Both the position numbers and the translations under genes were made by a program. Below the pieces are notes generated by a model. The model was not told the origin of the DNA. It was given only the letters and a program-made list of their open reading frames with translations, and made no database searches. Below, in pieces: positions 1,620 to 56,170 of a DNA stretch of 64,000 nt; the first letter of the stretch is position 1, and every line of letters begins with the position of its first letter. The DNA is from Cloacimonetes bacterium SCGC AAA252-N17 (GTDB lineage: Bacteria; Cloacimonadota; Cloacimonadia; JGIOTU-2): the NCBI GenBank assembly GCA_000404785.1, contig ASNI01000006.1, forward strand, positions 3,037 through 67,036, read 5' to 3'.

Positions 1620-3169
1620 GTCGACCCTGAAAAACTCTGTTTTTGTGCATTAGATTATTTACATTTTCATTACATTTAAGCATAAGATTTACAATATGAA
1701 TTGAGATATGGGTCAGATTGTATAATTTTAACATAATTTTCCAAGAAATTGAGCATTTTTTTGATAAAAACAGTAAAGACAAAAAAAGCAGACGCAATTC
1801 GCCTATAGATCATCCGTAAATTATATCCACAGGCTGAGAATACTACATTTAATGAATCTCCCTCTTTACCTTTAAGATAGTTGCGATCAAGACGATGTTC
1901 GCCTTTCATATGTCCAATATCCGCTTCAATGACGCTACGCCGATTATACCACCTCCGCTGTGAACGTGTAAGACGCTTTCTACTTCTTCCTACAATATGA
2001 ATCTCTGCTTCACCTTCATAATCATGCTTCCGATACCCAAGATCTACATACACATCTTCCAGGTTGCCAACCGAACGCACATTGCTCTTCGCTTGATGTA
2101 AAGTCTCTTGTAAAGTATGACCATCATAAGGATTCCCATGAAAAGCTACTGCCGACAATATAAAACCTTCTTTAGACGTTCCCGTAAATCCAACCTTGTT
2201 GCCAAATTCATAACGCTTATGTGCCTTCCCTTTGCAGATACATTCCACATGTGGCTCATGAACACTATAAAGTTTATGCTTACTCGTTTTCGTTTGACTC
2301 AAACCCTTATCCACTAACTGTCTTAATGCCTCGAAATCTTTATCCATAAGAAGTTCCGGTGTCGCTTTCCGAAGAATATCTCGATACAATCTCCCAAGTG
2401 AGGTCCTTAACTTACTCTTAACGCTCATGGCTCGTTTCATCTGTTTCGCATGCACATAACCGCCATGTCTACGAAGCAAAGTCTTACCTGATCTCTCATA
2501 GGTCTGTTTCATTGGAATATCATGTGATTTCGCTTTTCTAACAAGATGTTGGATTAATCTGTAATACAACTTTACATCTGTAGGAAAGGTGATGTTCTTC
2601 TCCTGTACTGTTGTATCAACATTTACCTTCTTGATGCTCTGCTTCCTTATCGTTTTCGTCTTTAAACCCGACTTGATCGTTGTCTCAAGAAGCTCTTGTA
2701 AATGTGAATCTTTAAGTCGATTACGCCACTTGGTCATGCTGGTAGGATGAATCGGGAACTCTGTCTGAAAATATTCTTCTCCGCAGAAATACTGCCAGTA
2801 GGGGTTCTCGATCCATTGCTCCACAAGAACTTCATCACTCAGGTTTTTCATATACTTCAGGAAATGAAGACCCACCATTAAACGCACCGATTTCGCAGGA
2901 CGCCCCATATCTTCTGAATACAATACCTTGAATGATTCATTAAGATCATCCCAAGATATACTATTCGCTAATCTACAGAGCGGATGTGGAAGATTTAGAA
3001 TATTTGGAAGATACATTTGAAACATATTTGGTTCATTTACTTTATTTTTTATCATCATAAACTCTCAGACTTTTAAGCATTTCTGCACCTTTTTTGGGAG
3101 TTTATTACGTACTAAAATCCTCGTAGTCAAGTTATTTATCAAGGCCTTAACAACTTTTTCAGGGGGAAC
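1620..3169 (-). mobile_element. IS5-family insertion sequence
   Basis: Imperfect terminal inverted repeats gtcgaccctgaaaaa / tttttcagggggaac; TA on both flanks (1618-1619, 3170-3171) as probable target duplication; single transposase inside. Confidence 0.8.
1676..3058 (-). CDS. IS5-family DDE transposase
   Basis: GRP..RLMVGL..LSDE..W.ENPYWQYFCG N-terminal domain; VDTTVQEK, D.GYR, RRSVIE..IGHMK DDE segments. Confidence 0.92.
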   Translation of the reverse strand: MMIKNKVNEPNMFQMYLPNILNLPHPLCRLANSISWDDLNESFKVLYSEDMGRPAKSVRLMVGLHFLKYMKNLSDEVLVEQWIENPYWQYFCGEEYFQTEFPIHPTSMTKWRNRLKDSHLQELLETTIKSGLKTKTIRKQSIKKVNVDTTVQEKNITFPTDVKLYYRLIQHLVRKAKSHDIPMKQTYERSGKTLLRRHGGYVHAKQMKRAMSVKSKLRTSLGRLYRDILRKATPELLMDKDFEALRQLVDKGLSQTKTSKHKLYSVHEPHVECICKGKAHKRYEFGNKVGFTGTSKEGFILSAVAFHGNPYDGHTLQETLHQAKSNVRSVGNLEDVYVDLGYRKHDYEGEAEIHIVGRSRKRLTRSQRRWYNRRSVIEADIGHMKGEHRLDRNYLKGKEGDSLNVVFSACGYNLRMIYRRIASAFFVFTVFIKKMLNFLENYVKIIQSDPYLNSYCKSYA

Positions 3170-3174
3170 TACTT

Positions 3175-3300
3175 ATCCCGTTAAATCTCATCTTTTTGTA
3201 TTTAACTGGGACCTGTCCCGTTAAATCTCATCTTTTTGTATTTAACTGGGACCTGTCCCGTTAAATCTGTTTTATTTATTTAACTGGGATTTCACTGGGG
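3175..3300. repeat. Three tandem 40-bp hairpin repeats inside an outer palindromic arm
   Basis: cccgttaaat..atttaactggg-acctgt units starting at 3177, 3217 and 3257; closes with atttcactgggg (3289-3300). Confidence 0.9.
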
Positions 3301-3325
3301 CAGAAAGATAAAAGATTAAAAAGAA

Positions 3326-4394: not shown

Positions 4395-4580
4395 TTACCC
4401 CGTGAAATACGAAAGTATATTTCACAGGGTGAACCCCTTGAAATCTGTTACTATTTATCCCGTTAAATCTCATCTTTTTGTATTTAACTGGGACCTGTCC
4501 CGTTAAATTTGTTTTATTTATTTAACTGGGACCTGTCCCGTTAAATCTGTTTTATTTATTTAACTGGGATTTAACTGGGG
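4395..4580. repeat. REP-like hairpin plus three tandem cccgttaaat..atttaactggg units
   Basis: Near-identical to the block at 3175-3300; preceded by ccccgtgaaat..atttcacagggtg. Confidence 0.88.
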
Positions 4581-4600
4581 AAGAAAGATAAAAAGAAAAA

Positions 4601-5346
4601 ATGAATCCATTTCAATATGGCAATATTGTATCAGGAGATTTCTTTTATGACCGCAAGGAAGAGTTGTTGCGCATTAAGCAAACACTGAAGGGGGGAAACA
4701 ACTTAATGCTTTATGCTCCCAGGCGCTACGGGAAATCTTCTTTGGTAGCAAAGGCTATGAACACCATCAGAATGTATCATATTTGTTTCTCGGAAGCCGG
4801 ACACATCTTTTGAAAAATATGTTTAACAACAAAAACAGGGCTTTTTATAATGCAGCAATGCTTATGAATATTAGAGCAATGGATACTGAACATTCTATTA
4901 ATTTTTTATCTGATCGTTTTGCAAAAGATAATATTGACATATTAAGAAACACTGCCTTATACCTTATTAAAAAAGTTGATAGTATTCCTTATTATATTCA
5001 ATTTGTAGCAGCAGAGATCTGGCAACAGATTATTAACAATAAACAAAAAATCACTAATTACCACGTTGATAAAGCATTAGAACATATTATTGATTTAAAA
5101 TCTGATTATTATTGGGAATTAACAAATAAACAAACAAATTATAGAAAAAAAGTTTTGTATGCCATCAGTAAATCTGTTGAAGAGTTGTTTTCAAAAAAAA
5201 CAACAAATGATTATAATCTCGGACCTGTCTCAACAACTCAAAAAGCTGTTAAATCTTTTATTAATGAGGGCATTATAGAACGTTTTAATAATCAATACAA
5301 ATTTTCCGACCCTATCTATAAATTGTTTTTAATCAAAAATTTATGA
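4601..5346 (+). pseudogene. AAA/archaeal-ATPase-family protein with internal deletion and frameshift
   Basis: NPF.YG..V..FYDRKEEL and Walker A APRRYGKSSL in one frame; at about 4765 the match switches frame to HQNVSYLFLGSRTHLL; the Walker B region is missing. Confidence 0.75.
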
Positions 5347-5387: not shown

Positions 5388-5459
5388 AAAGCAACCCAGT
5401 TCACCCCGTTAAATCCCTTCAGGATCCCGATATATCGGGATATTTAACAGGGTGAAATA
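5388..5459. repeat. 72-bp palindromic repeat, copy 1
   Basis: caccccgttaaat..cccgatatatcggg..atttaacagggtg; differs from 6208-6279 at 2 positions. Confidence 0.9.
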
Positions 5460-5541
5460 TAAAAATAAAGCCATTTCACCCATGTGTAATAACAGATAAA
5501 AGAGATTACACCCCGATTAAATAAAGGTGAAAAAGGAAAAT

Positions 5542-6207: not shown

Positions 6208-6279
6208 AAAGCAACCCAGTTCACCCCGTTAAATCCCTTCGGGATCTCGATATATCGGGATATTTAACAGGGTGAAATA
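6208..6279. repeat. 72-bp palindromic repeat, copy 2
   Basis: Direct repeat of 5388-5459 at an offset of 820 bp. Confidence 0.9.
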
Positions 6280-6294
6280 AAAGAAAAAGAAGAT

Positions 6295-6765
6295 TCCACC
6301 CCGATTAACCCGGTGAAATAAAAGACAGATTTCACAGGTTAAAAATAAAAGAAAGAATTTAATGGGGTAAACAGGGCAGGCCGAGAACACCGAATAACAC
6401 AGAAAAGGCTGAGATGATTTATAAAAAAGTAATTGTCATTCTGAATCCGCCAGCCGGCGGAGAAGAATCTCCTAAAAGTAATTGTCATCCCAGTTGAATA
6501 GAAAAGAAAGATTCAACGGGATAAATTCTGAAGCACATTCGCCTTGCTCAGTATAAACTCCGCGAAGTTTACAATCCCGATTTATCGGGGAATCTCGCAA
6601 GAAGAACGTTAATCAATCCTTCTGAGAGATCCTTCCCGTCTTTATTTCACTTCAGTCTTCTCCGCCAGCTGGCGGATACGCCCAGACAGGACGCCGTGAC
6701 AGGTCCGTCTTCGTTGCACTTCGCCGTGACAGGCGCTCACTTAGTTCACTCGAGGATGACAAAGA
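6295..6765. repeat. Composite nested REP-like array (TTGTCATTCTG..GAAGAATCTC / GAGATCCTTC..AGGATGACAA with inserted hairpins)
   Basis: Same units as those around 52480-52773 and at 55870-56170. Confidence 0.8.
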
Positions 6766-9607: not shown

Positions 9608-9742
9608 AAAGATAAAAGGGAAGACAAAAGATAAAAGAAAAAAGACGAAAGATTAAAAGCAGAAAGTAGAAATTGTAAAGCAGAAAGTTTACCCCGTGAA
9701 ATCTTTTGTTACTATTTCACCGGGGTAGAAAGCAGAAAGGTA
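9608..9742 (+). repeat. AAAGAT/GCAGAAA heptamer array with an inserted ccccgtgaaat..atttcaccgggg hairpin
   Basis: Repeat read directly from the sequence; same architecture as 1543-1617. Confidence 0.75.
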
Positions 9743-48427: not shown

Positions 48428-48520
48428 ATGGGGGAAACGTTGAGAGAAAGAGACGTTGTGAAGGAGAGACTGGGGGACTTGGTGAAGGGGAGTTTGGACT
48501 AATAGGCGGTAGGGTGATAA
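48428..48520 (+). repeat. G-rich octamer array (NNAGAGAC/NNGGTGAA), left flank
   Basis: gttgagag aaagagac gttgtgaa ggagagac tgggggac ttggtgaa. Confidence 0.7.
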
Positions 48521-48538: not shown

Positions 48539-48910
48539 ATGAAAATAAGAACGCATAAAGATCTTGTAGTTTATCAATTAGCTTTTGATGCAGCAATGGA
48601 AATATTTGAAATTACAAAATTATTTCCTAAAGAAGAACGATATTCTTTAGTTGATCAAATGCGCAGAAGTTCTCGTTCTGTAGCAGCAAATATTGCAGAA
48701 GCTTTTAGGAAAAGAAAGTATCCAAAAGCTTTTATATCAAAATTATCAGATAGCGAATCTGAAGCTGCAGAAACTCAGGTGTGGTTAGAATTTACTTTGA
48801 AATGCAGATATATTGATGAAATTACATTTGATGATTTGTTTAATAATTATGATCATATAATTGGCAAACTTGTAAATATGAGTAGAGAGCCACAGAATTG
48901 GAGCATATGA
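48539..48910 (+). CDS. Four-helix-bundle protein
   Basis: FPKEERYSLVDQMRRSSRSVAANIAEAFRKR..KLSDSESEAAETQVW. Confidence 0.92.
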   Translation: MKIRTHKDLVVYQLAFDAAMEIFEITKLFPKEERYSLVDQMRRSSRSVAANIAEAFRKRKYPKAFISKLSDSESEAAETQVWLEFTLKCRYIDEITFDDLFNNYDHIIGKLVNMSREPQNWSI

Positions 48911-49026: not shown

Positions 49027-50565
49027 ATGATGAAAGCATCCCTCTCGCCCAACGGAACGGAATATAAACTTCCAACCGAATCTGAATCAGCGAATGAATT
49101 AAAAGAACTCAAGAAAATAACTGCCGAGCAACGAAAATTAGGACGCAAGATCGTAGCTGTGCAGGGGATGGGTTTTGTCGGCTGCGTGATGGCAGCAGTT
49201 GTTGCAGATGCAGTTGATGAAAAAGGAGAACCGCTCTATTTTGTGCATGGTCAGCAAAGAGCTTCTCTGCGTTCCTTTTGGAAAGTGCCGGTTATCAATC
49301 GAGGAATCCCACCGGTAAGTTCCTCCGATGTAGAAGTGCCAAAAATATTTCATAGAACTGTAGTTGAAAAGAAAACACTGAGAGCAACATGGCTCAATTA
49401 TGCATATGAGGTGGCAGATATTGTGGTTGTAGATATTCAGTTGGATGCTACGAAACCTACTTTTGGAGATGCCTCTCAGGGCTATTGTGATATGTCTGCC
49501 TTTAGAGATGGCATGAAAAATCTTGGTATGCATATTTCTCCTGAATGTCTTATTCTTGTAGAAACAACTGTTCCGCCCGGAACATGCGAGAATGTCGTTA
49601 AGCCACTTATTGAAGAGGAATTTAATAAACGTGGAATTGACATTGCAAAGAATCCTCCTTTGATCGCACATTCTTATGAGCGAGTTATGCCCGGTGCAAA
49701 GTATGTAAGCTCAATCCGAGATTTCTGGCGTGTATTTTCGGGAGTGAATGAAAAGAGTAAGTATATTGCTCGAGAGTTTTTAAACAATATTCTCGATACT
49801 GAGAAATATCCCCTTACTGAATTGGATAACACAAATGCATCCGAACTTTCCAAGGTTATGGAAAATTCATATCGTGCAACGAATATTGCACTTACACTTG
49901 AATGGGCAAAGTGTGCGGAAAAGATAGGTGTCGATATTCATAAAGTACGTGCTGCGATCCGCAAACGTAAAGGTACTCACGATAATTTATTGCGTCCAAG
50001 TTTAGGGGTGGGTGGATATTGTCTGACGAAAGATCCTGTTCTGGCAAACTGGGCAATGGGTGCTATTTTTAATATTGATGATAAGCTGAAAATTGCAATA
50101 AATTCTGTTGATATTAATGATACAATGCCATTACATACTATCGATCTTATCAAAGAAGAATATCCTGATTTGAAGGATGTAAAGATAGCTGTTTTGGGTG
50201 TTTCTTATTTAGAAAATTTAGGAGACACGAGACATTCACCGTCCGAAACTCTGATAAAATTCTTGAATGAATATTGGGCAATTGTCAAAACCCACGATCC
50301 TTATGTGGAATATTGGGCAGAAATGGAGAATGTGCCGATTGAAAAATCACTATCCGATGCGCTAAAAGATGCAGATGTGGTCATTTTTGCTGTAGGTCAT
50401 ACGCAATACCTCGAGCTCGACCCGGATGAGGTTGTTGCGATGACAGGGAAAAAACCTCTTATTATAGACTGCTCAAATTTTCTTAATGATGAGAAGATAA
50501 AGGCATATTTGAGAGCAGGATGTAAAGTCAAAGGTGTTGGGAAGGGACATATTGGGAAGCTGTGA
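49027..50565 (+). CDS. Nucleotide-sugar dehydrogenase (UDP-HexNAc 6-dehydrogenase family)
   Basis: GMGFVG, ETTVPPGT, SYERVMPG, K..ENSYRA.NIA, GVGGYCL.KDP. Confidence 0.88.
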   Translation: MMKASLSPNGTEYKLPTESESANELKELKKITAEQRKLGRKIVAVQGMGFVGCVMAAVVADAVDEKGEPLYFVHGQQRASLRSFWKVPVINRGIPPVSSSDVEVPKIFHRTVVEKKTLRATWLNYAYEVADIVVVDIQLDATKPTFGDASQGYCDMSAFRDGMKNLGMHISPECLILVETTVPPGTCENVVKPLIEEEFNKRGIDIAKNPPLIAHSYERVMPGAKYVSSIRDFWRVFSGVNEKSKYIAREFLNNILDTEKYPLTELDNTNASELSKVMENSYRATNIALTLEWAKCAEKIGVDIHKVRAAIRKRKGTHDNLLRPSLGVGGYCLTKDPVLANWAMGAIFNIDDKLKIAINSVDINDTMPLHTIDLIKEEYPDLKDVKIAVLGVSYLENLGDTRHSPSETLIKFLNEYWAIVKTHDPYVEYWAEMENVPIEKSLSDALKDADVVIFAVGHTQYLELDPDEVVAMTGKKPLIIDCSNFLNDEKIKAYLRAGCKVKGVGKGHIGKL

Positions 50566-50642
50566 CAGGGCGACGGGGTGACTTGGTGAGGGAGAGACTG
50601 AGAGAGACAGGCTGACTGGGTGAGATTGAGATAAGATGAGAA
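50563..50642 (+). repeat. Octamer array (NNNGTGAC), left flank
   Basis: gtgacagg gcgacggg gtgacttg gtgaggga gagactga. Confidence 0.75.
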
Positions 50643-50666
50643 ATAATAAAAAAGGAGGAGGGTATA

Positions 50667-51038
50667 ATGAAAATAAGAGATCATAATGAATTGGATGTTT
50701 TTAATTTGTCTTTTGATAATGCGATGAAAATATTTGAACTTTCTAAGAATTTCCCAAAAGAAGAAAAGTTTTCATTAACTGATCAGATTAGAAGAGCTTC
50801 GAGATCAGTTGCTACGAATATTGCTGAAGCATTTAGAAAAAGACGTTATCCTAAAGCGTTTGTAGCAAAACTTTCAGATTCTGAAGCAGAAGCTGCAGAA
50901 ACTCAGGTCTGGTTAAAATTTTCCTATGAATGCAGCTATATAGACAAACAGGTTTTCAACGAATTAATCCAAAGTTATGATTTTGTTCTGGGGAAATTGG
51001 TAAATATGAGCCGGCAACCAGAGCAATGGACAACGTAA
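50667..51038 (+). CDS. Four-helix-bundle protein, close paralog of 48539-48910
   Basis: FPKEEKFSLTDQIRRASRSVATNIAEAFRKRRYPKAF. Confidence 0.92.
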   Translation: MKIRDHNELDVFNLSFDNAMKIFELSKNFPKEEKFSLTDQIRRASRSVATNIAEAFRKRRYPKAFVAKLSDSEAEAAETQVWLKFSYECSYIDKQVFNELIQSYDFVLGKLVNMSRQPEQWTT

Positions 51039-51061
51039 TATCCATCAGACTTTTTATAAAT

Positions 51062-51142
51062 CTCAAAGTCACTTGGTCACTTAGTCACAAAGTCCCCAAA
51101 TCACATAGTCCCAAAGTCTCTATGTCATAAAGTTACTAAATC
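51062..51142 (-). repeat. Inverted octamer array (GTCACNNN), right flank, about 10 units
   Basis: ctcaaagt cacttggt cacttagt cacaaagt ccccaaat cacatagt cccaaagt ctctatgt cataaagt. Confidence 0.85.
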
Positions 51143-51192: not shown

Positions 51193-52218
51193 ATGATAAT
51201 CTTATACTTTTTTTCCTTCTTCCTTATTTTATTTGGAGTTTCATTATTCATTTCTTTTAAGAAAAAAAACTCAATTCAGCATTCTTACTCCATCATAATT
51301 CCTTGCAGAAACGAGGAGCACACCCTTCCAGTTCTTCTACACTCATTAGAAAATCTCAATTATCCGGAAAAATTATTTGAAGTGATCCTTATTGATGATG
51401 CTTCGAGTGACAGTACTTCTAAAATAATTCAGGAATTCTGTAAAAATAGATCCAATTATACAGCAGTGCATATTGCCAATAAAAGTGAAGAGTATAAAGG
51501 CAAGAAGTATGCTCTTAAGAAGGGAATTGAAAAAGCACAATTTGAAAATCTTCTTTTTACTGATGCTGATTGCATGATGCCTTCGAACTGGATAGACTCG
51601 TTTAATAAATTCATTTGCAAAAATGTTGGAATGGTAGTAGGATACTCACCCGAAAAAGGAGTTTCTTCTTTTCGGAGATTTTCACAGATCATTACTGCAG
51701 ATTTTTATTGTGCCACGATAAATCTTGGAGTTCCCTTCAGTAACAATGGGAGGAATCTCTATATTAATAAAAAAGCTTACGAGCAGGTTGATGGATTCGA
51801 GAAGATAAAGAGCTTCACATGCGGAGAGGATAAGTTATTACTTAATCTCATTAAAAATACCCAGTTTAAAATCATATATAATTCTGACTGCAAGGTTTAT
51901 ACTCATCCTCAAATAAACGATTTTGCCAATCAGCAAAAACGCAGATACGGTCAATTTCCTTTATCGTCTCCGCTTTACAAAGTAGTTTCATTATTTATTC
52001 TTTTATTCTTTCTTTATATGCCATTCCATGTAATTTTTTATAAAGATTTGCTTGGTTTGTCGATATACTATGTTTCATTCTTGATTTTCTGGATTTCAGG
52101 TTTGATCAAACACAGGGAGTCCTTTCATTTCTTTGATCTGTTTTATATAATATTTTATCCATATTATTTGATTTATTATTCTCTGTTAGGGATGTTCAGC
52201 AAGTGGACGTGGAAATAA
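51193..52218 (+). CDS. Glycosyltransferase family 2 with membrane anchors
   Basis: SIIIPCRNEE, IDDASSD, GKKYAL, FTDADC, Q.KRR. Confidence 0.9.
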   Translation: MIILYFFSFFLILFGVSLFISFKKKNSIQHSYSIIIPCRNEEHTLPVLLHSLENLNYPEKLFEVILIDDASSDSTSKIIQEFCKNRSNYTAVHIANKSEEYKGKKYALKKGIEKAQFENLLFTDADCMMPSNWIDSFNKFICKNVGMVVGYSPEKGVSSFRRFSQIITADFYCATINLGVPFSNNGRNLYINKKAYEQVDGFEKIKSFTCGEDKLLLNLIKNTQFKIIYNSDCKVYTHPQINDFANQQKRRYGQFPLSSPLYKVVSLFILLFFLYMPFHVIFYKDLLGLSIYYVSFLIFWISGLIKHRESFHFFDLFYIIFYPYYLIYYSLLGMFSKWTWK

Positions 52219-52224
52219 TAGTTG

Positions 52225-52465
52225 ATTGTCACTCTGATCAGCCAGTGGGCGGAGAAGAGTCTCCCAAAAGTAATTGTCATTCTGGAGCACATTCGCTTTG
52301 CTCAGTATAAGCCATGTGCTGAGCGTAGCGAATGCATCCGCGAAGAATCTCCCGAAAGTAATTGTCATTCTGGAGCGCAGCGAAGAATCTCCCGAAAGCG
52401 TTAATTTATCCTCTTTTGAGATCCTTCGTCAGGAATTAAAATTCCTTCCTCGAGGATGACAAGAA
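52225..52465. repeat. REP-like doublet array upstream of the GIY-YIG gene
   Basis: Three TTGTCA(C/T)TCTG..GAAGA(A/G)TCTC units, then inverted GAGATCCTTC..AGGATGACAA. Confidence 0.88.
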
Positions 52466-52479
52466 AGTAGTAAAAAAAG

Positions 52480-52773
52480 ATGCCACTCACCAAAACCTAT
52501 TATGTGTATATAATGACTAATAACTCAAAGACTCTTTACACAGGTGTAACAAATAATCTGGAAAGAAGAGTCTTTGAGCATAAACATGGTACTGTTAGAG
52601 GTTTCACAAAAAAGTATAATATTGATCAACTTGTGCATTATGAATCCTGTCCTGACATAAATGGAGCAATAAATAGAGAAAAGCAAATCAAAGGTTGGCT
52701 TAGAATCAAAAAGATCGAGTTAATTGAAAGTGTTAATCCAGAATGGAAGGACCTTAGTTATGGCTGGTTTTAG
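52480..52773 (+). CDS. Small GIY-YIG nuclease
   Basis: YYVYIMTN..LYTGVTNNLERRVFEHK..FTKKY..LVHYE..AINREKQIKGW. Confidence 0.93.
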   Translation: MPLTKTYYVYIMTNNSKTLYTGVTNNLERRVFEHKHGTVRGFTKKYNIDQLVHYESCPDINGAINREKQIKGWLRIKKIELIESVNPEWKDLSYGWF

Positions 52774-52796
52774 TGATTAATAGGTTAAAAAGCAAG

Positions 52797-53245
52797 ATTG
52801 TCATTCTGGAGGAGCACATTCGCTTTGCTCAGTATAAACTCCGCGAAGAATCTGGCAAAAACATTGATCTATCCTCTTGGGGAGATCCTTCGTCACCCCA
52901 ATGAATTGGGGATTCCTCGAGGATGACAAGGAAGGGGAAATTGTCATTCTGGTGAATGTCAGTTTCAACTGACTGAAGAAGAATCTCCCGAAAGTAATTG
53001 TCATCCCAGTTAAATAAAAAAAAGATTTAACGGGATAAATTCTGGAGCACTTTCGCTTTGTTCAGTATAAGCCATGTGCTGAGCGTAGCGAATGCATCCG
53101 CGAAGAATCTCCCGAAAACATTAATTTATCCTCTTGGGAGATCCTTTCCGTCTTCATTTCAGTCTTCGCTACACTACGCCCAGACATGACGCCGTGACAG
53201 GCGGTCACTTCACTCAGACAGCTGGCTGATGACAAAGTAATGTGT
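52797..53245. repeat. REP-like doublet array downstream of the GIY-YIG gene
   Basis: Same unit pair repeated twice, with different nested hairpins in the loops. Confidence 0.88.
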
Positions 53246-53262
53246 ATGACAATCAAAATTAA

Positions 53263-54156
53263 ATGAAATTATCAAACTCATCCAAAACCATAATTTTTGT
53301 CCTTAAGATAATCATAACAGCACTAATACTCTATTTCATTTTCAAAAAAATTCAATTTGACCAATTAATTGCTGATTTCCTGACAATAAAATTATGGGTA
53401 ATACTATTAATTATTATCACAACAATTATTAAACTCTTTATTCAGGCATATAATTGGGGAAAATATCTCAAAATGAATTCTGATTACACACCTAAGAAAT
53501 ATGAAGTGTTGAAATCATATTTTGTCGGACTGGCACTACGATTTGTTGGTCCTGGCGGTATCGGTGTCGTTGGCAAAATATATTTTGTGAATAACAAAAA
53601 GAAAGCCACATTAGCTTCAATAGGCGTTGAGCGAATATTCCTTACATGGAAAAATATTTTTTTTGCAGCTTTTGCAGCGATTTTCTTTTTCACCAACATT
53701 AATATGATCATAAAGGTAGCGGTCTTGATCGCAGTGATCTTTCTTCCTTTTATAATTTATCTTTTTTCTTTCTTAACCAAAAATGAGAATATCCAGTCAT
53801 ACTCATTAAATTATTTAAAGAAAACACCCGAAATAATGCTTGCACAGATAATTTTTGTGTTTATAACATTCTACCAATATTTTATTCTTCTGAGAAATTT
53901 CGTTGATATTAGTTTTTTTAAAATTATGATCTCTGTCCCACTCATTCATATCTCTCACATTATTCCCCTTTCATTTAATGGATTTGGGCTTCGTGAAACC
54001 TTTGCAATCGAGGTTTTCTCGAAGTATGGAATAAGTCCTGAACTTGCGGTCACTGCTACGTTCTTAATATTTTTCTTTAATTCGGTTGTTCCGGCAATAA
54101 TCGGTGTATATTACATTTTCAGGATAAAACATAGCAAAGAAGCGATAAGAATATGA
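53263..54156 (+). CDS. Lysylphosphatidylglycerol-synthase TM-region (UPF0104) membrane protein
   Basis: K..I..LILYFIF, P.G.G..GK, ER, PLSFNGFGLRE. Confidence 0.8.
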   Translation: MKLSNSSKTIIFVLKIIITALILYFIFKKIQFDQLIADFLTIKLWVILLIIITTIIKLFIQAYNWGKYLKMNSDYTPKKYEVLKSYFVGLALRFVGPGGIGVVGKIYFVNNKKKATLASIGVERIFLTWKNIFFAAFAAIFFFTNINMIIKVAVLIAVIFLPFIIYLFSFLTKNENIQSYSLNYLKKTPEIMLAQIIFVFITFYQYFILLRNFVDISFFKIMISVPLIHISHIIPLSFNGFGLRETFAIEVFSKYGISPELAVTATFLIFFFNSVVPAIIGVYYIFRIKHSKEAIRI

Positions 54157-55869: not shown

Positions 55870-56170
55870 GGTGAGCTAAAACTCACTTCTCAAGGATAAC
55901 AAGGAAGGGGGATTGTCATTCTGATCCGCCAGCTGGCTAAGAAAGAGAATCTCCCCAACAAGGATTGTCATTCTGGAATCCGATTTATCGGGTGAAGAAT
56001 CTCCCAAGAACATTAATTCATCCTTTTGGGAGATCCTTCGTCACCCCCAATGAATTGGGGATTCCTCGAGGATGACAATGAAGGGGAGATTGTCATTCTG
56101 GTGAATGTCAGTTTCAACTGACTGAAGAAGAGTCTCCCAAGATATTAATCTATCGTTATTGGATATCCTT
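55870..56170. repeat. Orphan REP-like doublet array (same family as around the GIY-YIG gene)
   Basis: gagatccttcgtcacccc(c)aatgaattggggattcctcgaggatgacaa and ttgtcattctggtgaatgtcagtttcaactgactgaagaa shared with 52878-52990. Confidence 0.88.

Follow-up and report, generated by a model that had tools for sequence, protein, structure and literature searches.

Why should a very small nuclease gene lie amid short hairpin repeats that also occur without it? The question was raised by a 64,000-nt stretch of contig ASNI01000006.1 from Cloacimonetes bacterium SCGC AAA252-N17 (hereafter, the window), in which a gene encoding a 97-aa GIY-YIG protein sits in a 1044-nt gap between a family-2 glycosyltransferase (GT2) gene (51193-52218) and an LPG-synthase-TM-like gene (53263-54156), with nine repeat units taking up nearly the whole gap around it (Table 1). 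An initial annotation had placed this gene between arrays of hairpin doublets, had noted the same doublets elsewhere without the gene, and had proposed a repetitive extragenic palindrome (REP) system of the REPIN type whose associated enzyme is a GIY-YIG nuclease. Our analysis bears out the arrangement and suggests an answer: the gene very probably encodes a member of the Ssn nuclease family, with the surrounding repeats as its cognate hairpin sites, the counterpart of the NTS/SRM repeats of that family. We place gene and units there because the catalytic residues, the fold, the conserved GTC and 3' C and the free apical arm all match Ssn.

The protein itself points strongly in this direction. 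It matches PF01541 (GIY-YIG) in Pfam with an E value of 3.8e-14 over residues 7-76, and pairwise BLASTP against the SsnA ortholog of Neisseria gonorrhoeae gave 43% identity (E 6e-26), the N. gonorrhoeae chromosome record being matched at E 2e-16 by tblastn. The gonococcal open reading frame (ORF) lies inside an NTS array and carries Y6, Y17 and E64 exactly at the SsnA positions mutated by Chenal et al. (PMC11893778); via this ortholog, the window protein comes within the limit used there for Ssn homology (E < 1e-10 to N. meningitidis SsnA). Residues Y10, Y20 and E67 of the window protein align with catalytic Y6, Y17 and E64 of N. meningitidis SsnA, and Y20, R30, H34, E67 and N86 were invariant in an alignment of 25 sequences that included proteobacterial homologs. 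The AlphaFold2 (AF2) model, made from an alignment of database hits only, without the proteobacterial rows, shows one compact GIY-YIG domain with two C-terminal helices (pLDDT 90.3). The closest structures are the UPF0213 protein 1zg2 and Slx1 nuclease domains (1zg2, 6seh, 7cq2), and in an April 2026 copy of the PDB no entry comes nearer than 1zg2, at 25% identity. The window protein has the same fold as the Slx1/UPF0213 group (YhbQ, BH0048, EF2693); Slx1, however, depends on Slx4 along with a RING domain, and its substrate is branched duplex DNA.

A GIY-YIG fold is also what one would expect of a classical free-standing homing endonuclease cutting duplex DNA at a long asymmetric site, and a weak match to the group I intron endonuclease family TIGR01453 (NCBIfam; E 0.0017, under the cut-off) was obtained. 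We nevertheless give this explanation next to no chance, as all 97 aa make up the catalytic domain and neither Pfam nor the AF2 model shows an accessory DNA-binding domain, the nearest structures are those of UPF0213 and Slx1 and not of I-TevI, an intron or intein context is absent, and the family lacks activity on double-stranded DNA (dsDNA) in vitro (PMC11893778).

The Ssn system was described in March 2025 as consisting of single-domain GIY-YIG nucleases flanked by cognate hairpin repeats, NTS or Ssn-related motifs (SRMs) (Chenal et al., Nat Commun 2025, PMC11893778). SsnA of N. meningitidis (94 aa, CDD cd10448) binds the NTS hairpin, that is, dRS3 with a CGTC tag and a 3' C, as single-stranded DNA (ssDNA) only and on one strand only, and cuts a few nucleotides upstream of the hairpin in non-conserved sequence; dsDNA and RNA are not substrates and RNA is not bound. 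Cutting depends on the three nucleotides 5' of the palindrome and binding on the C right after it, the loop tolerates both removal and extension, and cutting is lost in Y6A, Y17A and E64A. Three more homologs cut their own hairpins in vitro, so that hairpin-specific activity, which the initial annotation had listed among the things to check, is already on record for relatives of the window protein. In the same study, an SRM was found in the flanks of 71% of the homologs (on both sides in 42%), and 81% of the genomes with more than 200 SRMs encoded a homolog. The only demonstrated function is the restriction of incoming transforming ssDNA in Neisseria, where deletion of ssnA raised transformation with NTS-bearing DNA about five-fold (PMC11893778). 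No later publication on the Ssn family was found in the literature. By analogy, the enzymology of the window protein would be that of SsnA.

The repeats share several features with NTS. Forward units in the window have the layout TGTC-A(T/C)TCT-G...GA-AGA(A/G)T-CTC with a variable arm in the middle, and inverse units read AGATCCTTC...AGGATGACA or GAGATCCTTC..AGGATGACA. What is conserved at the unit ends is the TGTC tag, a 5-nt stem arm and G(G)AG on one side, and GA, the complementary 5-nt arm and C(TC) on the other. The apical arm between them ranges from 9 nt in U2 to more than 60 nt in U1 and U7 and up to about 130 nt, and according to DNA folds it is mostly a hairpin in its own right. The 28-nt minimal unit is collinear with NTS (CGTC ATTCC CG C gcag G CG GGAAT C for NTS vs TGTC ATTCT GA GC gca GC GA AGAAT C here). 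As in the published system, the gene is flanked by oriented hairpins that carry a 5' (C/T)GTC tag and a C directly after the stem, its product is a GIY-YIG protein of about 95 aa that has a single domain and shares the catalytic residues, and many gene-less copies of the repeat are dispersed, often as inverted pairs and arrays.

The association is not peculiar to the window. Its protein has thousands of relatives that are 65-85% identical, and the clade to which it belongs is 60-75% identical across phyla. We analyzed 80 genome loci of homologs from Cloacimonadota, Chloroflexota, Cyanobacteriota, Acidobacteriota, Planctomycetota, Ignavibacteria, Deltaproteobacteria, Patescibacteria and others. 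On visual inspection, the flanks of these loci contain the unit seen in the window. A loose unit definition (GTC, a 5-nt stem and its reverse complement within 200 nt) was dropped, as it gave 629 units vs 316 in shuffled loci; the definition adopted, GTC + stem + G ... GA + reverse-complement stem, gave 312 units vs 1-7 in shuffles. Unit density was 5.1/kb up to 300 nt from the gene and 0.088/kb more than 1 kb away, a 58-fold difference. A unit was present within 300 nt of the gene in 72 of the 80 loci and on both sides in 56, as compared with 3.0% and 0.07%, respectively, of 7612 gene-sized control windows from the same loci. The enrichment of tagged repeats around this GIY-YIG clade that the initial annotation had suggested looking for is thus pronounced, and homologs that lack such flanks, which it had named as the finding to be feared, are in the minority. 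The pairing of a repeat system with a GIY-YIG nuclease, its central proposal, is supported by these flanks and is the same pairing published in March 2025 (PMC11893778).

The layout around the gene varies. A forward unit, the gene and an inverse unit in this order was the most frequent arrangement (29/80), and the gene between two doublets, as in the window, formed the second class. Gene and unit are 0 to about 190 nt apart, and at several loci the ORF extends into the inverse unit and takes the TGA of that unit as its stop codon. Forward/inverse doublets across the loci (52 in all) had spacers of 7-98 nt, and the stems differed in 39 of the 52, a share that does not clearly depart from what stem types paired at random would give.

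The association is strongly asymmetric. Among 122 units sampled in metagenome contigs solely by their pattern, only two had a gene homolog within 500 nt, as did one of the 76 that had at least 700 nt on both sides, making about 98% of the sampled units orphans. The homologous gene is therefore nearly always flanked by units, whereas the great majority of units stand without a gene, and the same asymmetry holds between RAYT genes and REPINs. Further likenesses to REPIN-RAYT systems are the hairpins with a short 5' tag in inverted doublets, the hundreds of orphans per enzyme gene, the flanking of the enzyme gene itself by repeats, and the recognition of one strand as ssDNA. However, the enzyme here is a GIY-YIG hydrolase and not an HUH/Y1 transposase with a covalent intermediate (no HUH/Y1 gene is present between or beside the window arrays), and the tag is (C/T)GTC and not GTAG. 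The enzyme-driven replicative spread implied by the term REPIN-like is a hypothesis for the units here, as it is for the published system (PMC11893778).

We then asked whether the hairpin itself is under selection, and covariation strongly suggests that it is. The head stem predicts the tail: ATTCT is paired with AGAAT in 109 of 112 cases, ATCCT with AGGAT in 31/32, ATGCT with AGCAT in 17/19, ACCCT with AGGGT in 16/16 and ATTCC with GGAAT in 21/22. In 72 distinct 28-nt candidates collected with no demand for complementarity, 89.9% of the cells were paired vs 77.3% in shuffles, and the covariation score was 0.378 vs 0.152, a value reached by none of 500 shuffles, with slid controls at 0.12 or below. 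All four Watson-Crick combinations occur at the central stem pair of these candidates (U-A 30, C-G 22, G-C 10, A-U 3), and the most frequent minimal unit, TGTCATTCTGAGCGCAGCGAAGAATCTC, recurs across the 80 loci. G10-A11 and G19-A20 were fixed by the search pattern, which makes their invariance uninformative by itself; the G.A/A.G arrangement does recur in the window clade at positions where NTS has C-G/G-C. A search without the tag requirement showed conservation directly on both sides of the stem, with T.91, G.96, T.95 and C.94 on the 5' side and C.95, T.85 and C.67 on the 3' side, positions -5 and -6 being unconstrained. The most conserved of these flank positions, GTC and the 3' C, are those found to be functionally critical in SsnA substrates, and the free apical arm matches the loop-extension experiments (PMC11893778).

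A hairpin under selection could also act at the RNA level, as a terminator, stabilizer or regulator, in which case the units beside the gene would reflect expression control and not DNA cleavage. The hairpins would fold as RNA too, the tandem G.A motif is common in RNA, and RNA roles have been proposed for REPs (Di Nocera, PMC3733652). We find this explanation extremely improbable, as no Rfam family matched anywhere in the window, the units are found in either orientation, flank the gene on both sides and also make up gene-less arrays, and SsnA does not bind RNA (PMC11893778). Likewise, a promoter and terminator scan of 52150-53300 gave nothing beyond shuffles, the lone terminator-like match comparing with a shuffle mean of 0.6.

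Some observations do weigh against assigning gene and units to Ssn. The 43% identity quoted above is all that the window subclade shares with the biochemically tested enzymes, and the role in transformation is known for Neisseria only (PMC11893778). Where the basal stem has a single mismatch, this is mostly A.C (29) and seldom G.T (4), a bias that would favor folding of the opposite strand, although most of them sit at stem position 1 and may reflect register. Finally, the published SRM pattern, translated literally as HGTCWYN(0-2)YYVSBRHN(0-5)WNVSBRGN(0-2)RNCYNB, has no match in the window and lies near the gene in only one of the 80 clade loci, whereas it was matched near the gene in Neisseria (6), Azospirillum (4), Aeromonas (2), Photobacterium (2), Sinorhizobium (1) and Sphingobium (1). 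This pattern is a search heuristic and not a defining property of Ssn, and it misses the clade units because of their GAG/GA interruption, with G.A/A.G in place of the C-G/G-C of NTS. The hairpin of the window clade is thus a different sequence class from the published SRM: its stem is broken by the conserved tandem G.A/A.G, the tag is TGTC, free covariation is limited to the five basal pairs, the apical arm is hypervariable, with 9 to about 130 nt, and CTC takes the place of CYRG as the tail. The clade is a separate one at the protein level as well.

The arrays of the window allowed a closer view of how such units are organized. Forward units have the stem ATTCT/AGAAT, except for ACTCT/AGAGT in U0, whose AGAGT tail is seen again in C4, and the intact inverse units are all ATCCT/AGGAT, making every doublet of the window an ATTCT/ATCCT heterodimer. 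This stem difference is compensatory; hence, the two members of a doublet are not perfect mutual complements. The doublets without the gene that had been reported in the initial annotation were recovered as two gene-less arrays, A and C (Table 1), as were the long segments shared between arrays: 52896-52989 and 56045-56138 are 97% identical over 94 nt, and 6461-6505 is 91% identical to 52977-53021. TTGTCATYCY occurs 16 times in the window vs 1.01 expected from dinucleotide shuffles (0/100 reach 16) and GAAGRATCTC 10 times vs 0.35 expected, again with no shuffle getting there. All 10 of the latter and 14 of the 16 former lie in the arrays, the remaining two being stray heads. In U7 and in the second unit of array A, another repeat family is inserted between TGTCAT and ATTCTG.

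Table 1. Repeat units, gene and related features, by position in the window.
Feature	Positions	Strand	Remarks
Gene-less array A	6434-6761		+ unit 6434-6470; + unit 6483-~6597 with nested insertions; inverse unit 6627-6761
U0, forward hairpin	52227-52262	+	Stem ACTCT/AGAGT
U1, forward hairpin	52275-52350	+	Long apical palindrome; left copy of 79-nt direct repeat (52279-52357); DNA fold -16.1 kcal/mol, z -2.9
Segment missing from GCA_000404885.1	52359-53038		U2 through U7 head, gene included; bounded by 79-nt U1/U7 direct repeat
U2, minimal 28-nt forward hairpin	52363-52390	+	TGTCATTCTGGAGCGCAGCGAAGAATCT
Conserved doublet spacer	52391-52418		CCCGAAAGCGTTAATTTATCCTCTTTTG; related copies at 52854-52882, 53111-53138, 56003-56030
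U3, inverse hairpin	52419-52461	-	Stem ATCCT/AGGAT; 18 nt 5' of start codon
ssn-like gene, 97-aa single-domain GIY-YIG nuclease (by homology)	52480-52773	+	Pfam PF01541
U4, forward hairpin	52799-52853	+	25 nt 3' of stop codon
U5, inverse hairpin	52883-52928	-	DNA fold z -2.0
U6, forward hairpin	52942-52986	+	97% identical copy at 56091-56135
U7, forward hairpin	52999-53110	+	Head split by nested insertion of other repeat family (about 53005-53038); right copy of 79-nt direct repeat (53039-53117); DNA fold z -3.9
U8, long degenerate inverse unit	53139-53234	-	AGATCCTTT...TGATGACA
Partial inverse unit beside array C	55886-55903		
Gene-less array C	55914-56135		+ unit 55914-55951; + unit 55966-56002; inverse unit 56031-56077; + unit 56091-56135

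The units also fit a superfamily known for longer, the CGTC-tagged REPs (Di Nocera et al., BMC Genomics 2013, PMC3733652). These carry a CGTC, TGTC or CCTC tag and a stem starting A-T, T-A, occur mostly as inverted dimers, include the Neisseria dRS3/NIME and Rickettsia RPE-4/6 repeats, and were stated to 'lack a dedicated transposase', the GIY-YIG gene not having been noticed. Units of the window clade resemble them in the unpaired TGTC tag (91-96% conserved), in stems that mostly start A-T, T-A, with about nine stem positions, a short loop and an unpaired 3' tail, and in the prevalence of inverted dimers, often heterodimers, with the spacers reported in PMC3733652 being 20-100 bp. They differ from the families described there, which have an uninterrupted stem of 8-9 bp, a loop of 4-5 nt and the tail CCA, whereas, compared with that text description, the clade unit has nine stem positions of which 6-7 are G.A/A.G, a minimal loop of 3 nt and the tail CTC. 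Cloacimonadota, Chloroflexota and Cyanobacteriota are not listed as CGTC hosts in PMC3733652, and the Ssn study (PMC11893778) cites neither the CGTC-REP work nor the REPIN literature.

A link between the two is given by proteobacterial homologs, which we retrieved by tblastn from a plasmid collection that includes some whole chromosomes. Homologs are present in several of the host species of PMC3733652 (Sinorhizobium meliloti, Azospirillum lipoferum, Novosphingobium aromaticivorans, Neisseria), each flanked by its own CGTC hairpins. The N. gonorrhoeae homolog lies inside a dRS3/NTS array (CGTCATTCCCGCGCAGGCGGGAATC), that of S. meliloti has CGTCATCCTCGGGCTTGACCCGAGGATCCA on both sides in inverted orientation, and that of A. 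lipoferum 4B (L233) separates sufB from sufC in the suf operon and is flanked by a doublet on either side. In N. aromaticivorans, Sphingobium and Aeromonas caviae a single unit stands on each side, and the latter two have no other such hairpin within 5.2 kb. Photobacterium has an array of 14 units downstream of the gene, and the Planktothrix and Spirosoma homologs have TGTC-type units; no flanking units were found at the homolog locus of Subdoligranulum, a distant Firmicute relative (34% identity). The hairpin sequence differs between lineages, with ATTCCCGC in Neisseria, Aeromonas and Photobacterium, ATCCTCGGG in S. meliloti, GCCCCGTG in Novosphingobium and ACCCCGGG in Sphingobium. Two of these loci have further features. 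In S. meliloti (L232), there is in addition a C-terminal piece of a second ssn copy (…EWKIELIEKLNPDWRDLYFQLW*), which sits between units a short way upstream of the complete gene, and on plasmid p1 of Planktothrix agardhii (L235) the homolog is found between an MmeI-type restriction-modification gene and DISARM drmA.

To see how the locus behaves within the population, we examined conspecific sequences. The exact 97-aa protein is encoded by 10 contigs or single-cell genomes, always between the same GT2 and LPG-synthase genes, and this single location gives no sign of a recent transposition of the window copy. A 99% variant (P0001) comes from short contigs that cover the same region and have their units rearranged, and further unit rearrangements were seen in other metagenome contigs; synteny with the related Cloacimonadota contig L001 is only patchy. 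In the conspecific genome GCA_000404885.1 (L081), the flanks are 99.6-99.8% identical to the window and the segment that contains the gene is absent (Table 1). The same genome carries at L081 2447-3653 an IS110-family transposase gene (DEDD_Tnp_IS110 + Transposase_20, 320 aa) within the head of a forward unit, attgtcatt|IS|cattctgg, which corresponds to window position ~52231 and is the same spot of the unit as that of the nested repeat in U7. The Neisseria dRS3 repeats are presumably targets of IS110-family elements as well.

Insertions of this kind raise the possibility that the GIY-YIG gene is itself a passenger or parasite, having landed or been kept in pre-existing repeats that were spread by another enzyme of the IS110 or HUH type. 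REP-type repeats are known targets of IS110-family elements (PMC1525189), and the transposase just described sits inside a unit head. We consider a passenger gene very improbable nonetheless: the units flanking the gene are intact, unlike the split unit at the IS110 site, the association persists while the hairpin sequence changes from lineage to lineage, in vitro homologs bind and cut hairpins of their own (PMC11893778), and no transposase was tied to CGTC repeats by Di Nocera et al. (PMC3733652).

Another possibility, unlikely in our view but with an appreciable chance of being correct, is that of an active selfish element, in which the hairpin-flanked gene would be an autonomous unit of the insertion sequence (IS) or REPtron type and the gene-less doublets its non-autonomous derivatives, comparable to REPINs or to MITEs (transposable elements of the miniature inverted-repeat kind). 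Spread by the nuclease with the help of host repair would be compatible with membership in Ssn, and Chenal et al. (PMC11893778) described the NTS-ssnA-NTS architecture as 'identical to' an IS and proposed domestication. The frequency of the forward unit-gene-inverse unit layout, often tight and with the ORF ending within the inverse unit, the excess of orphans, the near-identical multi-unit segments 3 and 46 kb apart, the presence or absence of the gene segment among conspecifics and a protein 60-75% identical across phyla would all be expected of such an element. So would small circles, and two contigs from independent samples, L108 (700 nt) and L110 (684 nt), form closed 559-nt cycles with terminal overlaps of 141 and 125 nt, while L107 (703 nt) from a third sample forms a 662-nt cycle with an extra nested repeat. 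Each cycle contains the GIY-YIG gene with U7-like, U2 and U3 units. The 141-nt overlap equals the k-mer size implied by the 'k141' contig names, and the cycles could be tandem amplifications, excised circles or artefacts of the assembly graph.

On the other hand, GIY-YIG enzymes hydrolyze DNA, and a strand-transfer or ligation step is not known for them. The exact window protein is confined to one locus, neither fixed element ends nor target-site duplications were found at the homolog loci, and the distance from gene to unit is variable. The sole indel seen, that of GCA_000404885.1, is bounded by the 79-nt direct repeat, as plain homologous recombination predicts. Moreover, in two Deltaproteobacteria metagenome-assembled genomes (L004 and L014) a forward unit, the gene and an inverse unit lie directly upstream of an aspartokinase gene (MALIVQKYGG...) in divergent DNA, and this shared site suggests long residence in that lineage. 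The near-identical segments at distant sites of the window and the polymorphic array structure fit recombination between units; no new insertion with defined ends was seen, and none of these observations demonstrates transposition. It is quite unlikely, though conceivable, that the nuclease-hairpin module of this lineage is still mobile without a transposase, as a REPIN-like replicator driven by a hydrolytic ssDNA nuclease and host repair. In that case the gene and three units would leave as a circle of ~560 bp or amplify in tandem by unit exchange, and the gene-less doublets would be relics.

Under the Ssn assignment that we favor, the following model can be proposed. The window protein, by homology with SsnA, for which this has been shown, would be inactive on duplex DNA and RNA. 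Uptake, replication or repair, for instance, may expose one strand as ssDNA; if this strand reads 5'-TGTC-ATTCT...AGAAT-C-3', it would fold into the hairpin, and the enzyme would bind the stem and the following C and then cut by hydrolysis a few nucleotides 5' of the GTC tag. Constraint would be confined to the tags, the basal stem of 5 bp and the GAG/GA internal loop, the apical arm being free, and units in opposite orientations would mark opposite strands. The arrays may evolve by recombination between units, which could also remove or duplicate the gene segment. The likeliest role in the cell would be to cut ssDNA at specific sites and in this way to modulate how repeat-bearing DNA is recombined or taken up, as in Neisseria.

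A system of this kind has been known since March 2025, and the window copy is a divergent new example in Cloacimonadota. What is new is the hairpin class of a very large and highly conserved Ssn clade, spanning Cloacimonadota, Chloroflexota, Cyanobacteriota, Acidobacteriota, Planctomycetota, Ignavibacteria and others. As the published SRM pattern is blind to these hairpins, the censuses in print, those of flanked homologs (71%) and of genomes that exceed 200 SRMs, probably undercount. The natural sites show what is read, namely the tags, five covarying pairs and the tandem G.A, with almost anything allowed in the apical arm, and such site rules would help to turn Ssn enzymes into programmable ssDNA cutters of new specificity. 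Also new is the link from Ssn to the CGTC-tagged REP superfamily, which in 2013 had been left enzyme-less. Finally, the gain and loss of the gene segment at the population level, the IS110 element in a unit head and the closed cycles provide concrete material on whether such modules move.

The first 10 kb of the window are rich in several further short repeat families, of the CCCGTTAAATC...GATTTAACTGGGA, CCCGTGAAATC and GGGTGAAAT types, and one of them is the family nested in Ssn unit heads between TGTCAT and ATTCTG. Sites of these families are 53005-53038, 6490-6530, 1556-1618, 3168-3325, 4450-4605, 5388-5481, 6208-6301 and 9655-9717.

The neighborhood of the gene contains further strain-variable features. 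Two 123-aa 23S_rRNA_IVP (PF05635) genes (48539-48910 and 50667-51038) bracket a UDP-glucose dehydrogenase gene, and both are preceded by a G-rich stretch of the GTGA/GAGAGAC type (flanks at 48430-48520, 50565-50650 and 51060-51130), the second being followed by an approximate inverse of this stretch (agtcacttggtcacttagtcac...). The first copy is present in the conspecific contigs L086, L087 and L089 and absent from L085 and L088, and the IVP gene looks like another small gene with inverted flanking repeats. L085 and L088 (positions 1-186 of each) have a different GIY-YIG gene encoding 84 aa (PF01541 and a weak T5orf172 match), accompanied by VanZ and HATPase_c_4 genes, some 1.65 kb upstream of the gene for UDP-glucose dehydrogenase; at this position the window has a 515-aa ORF and the extra IVP gene, a further replacement at the strain level.

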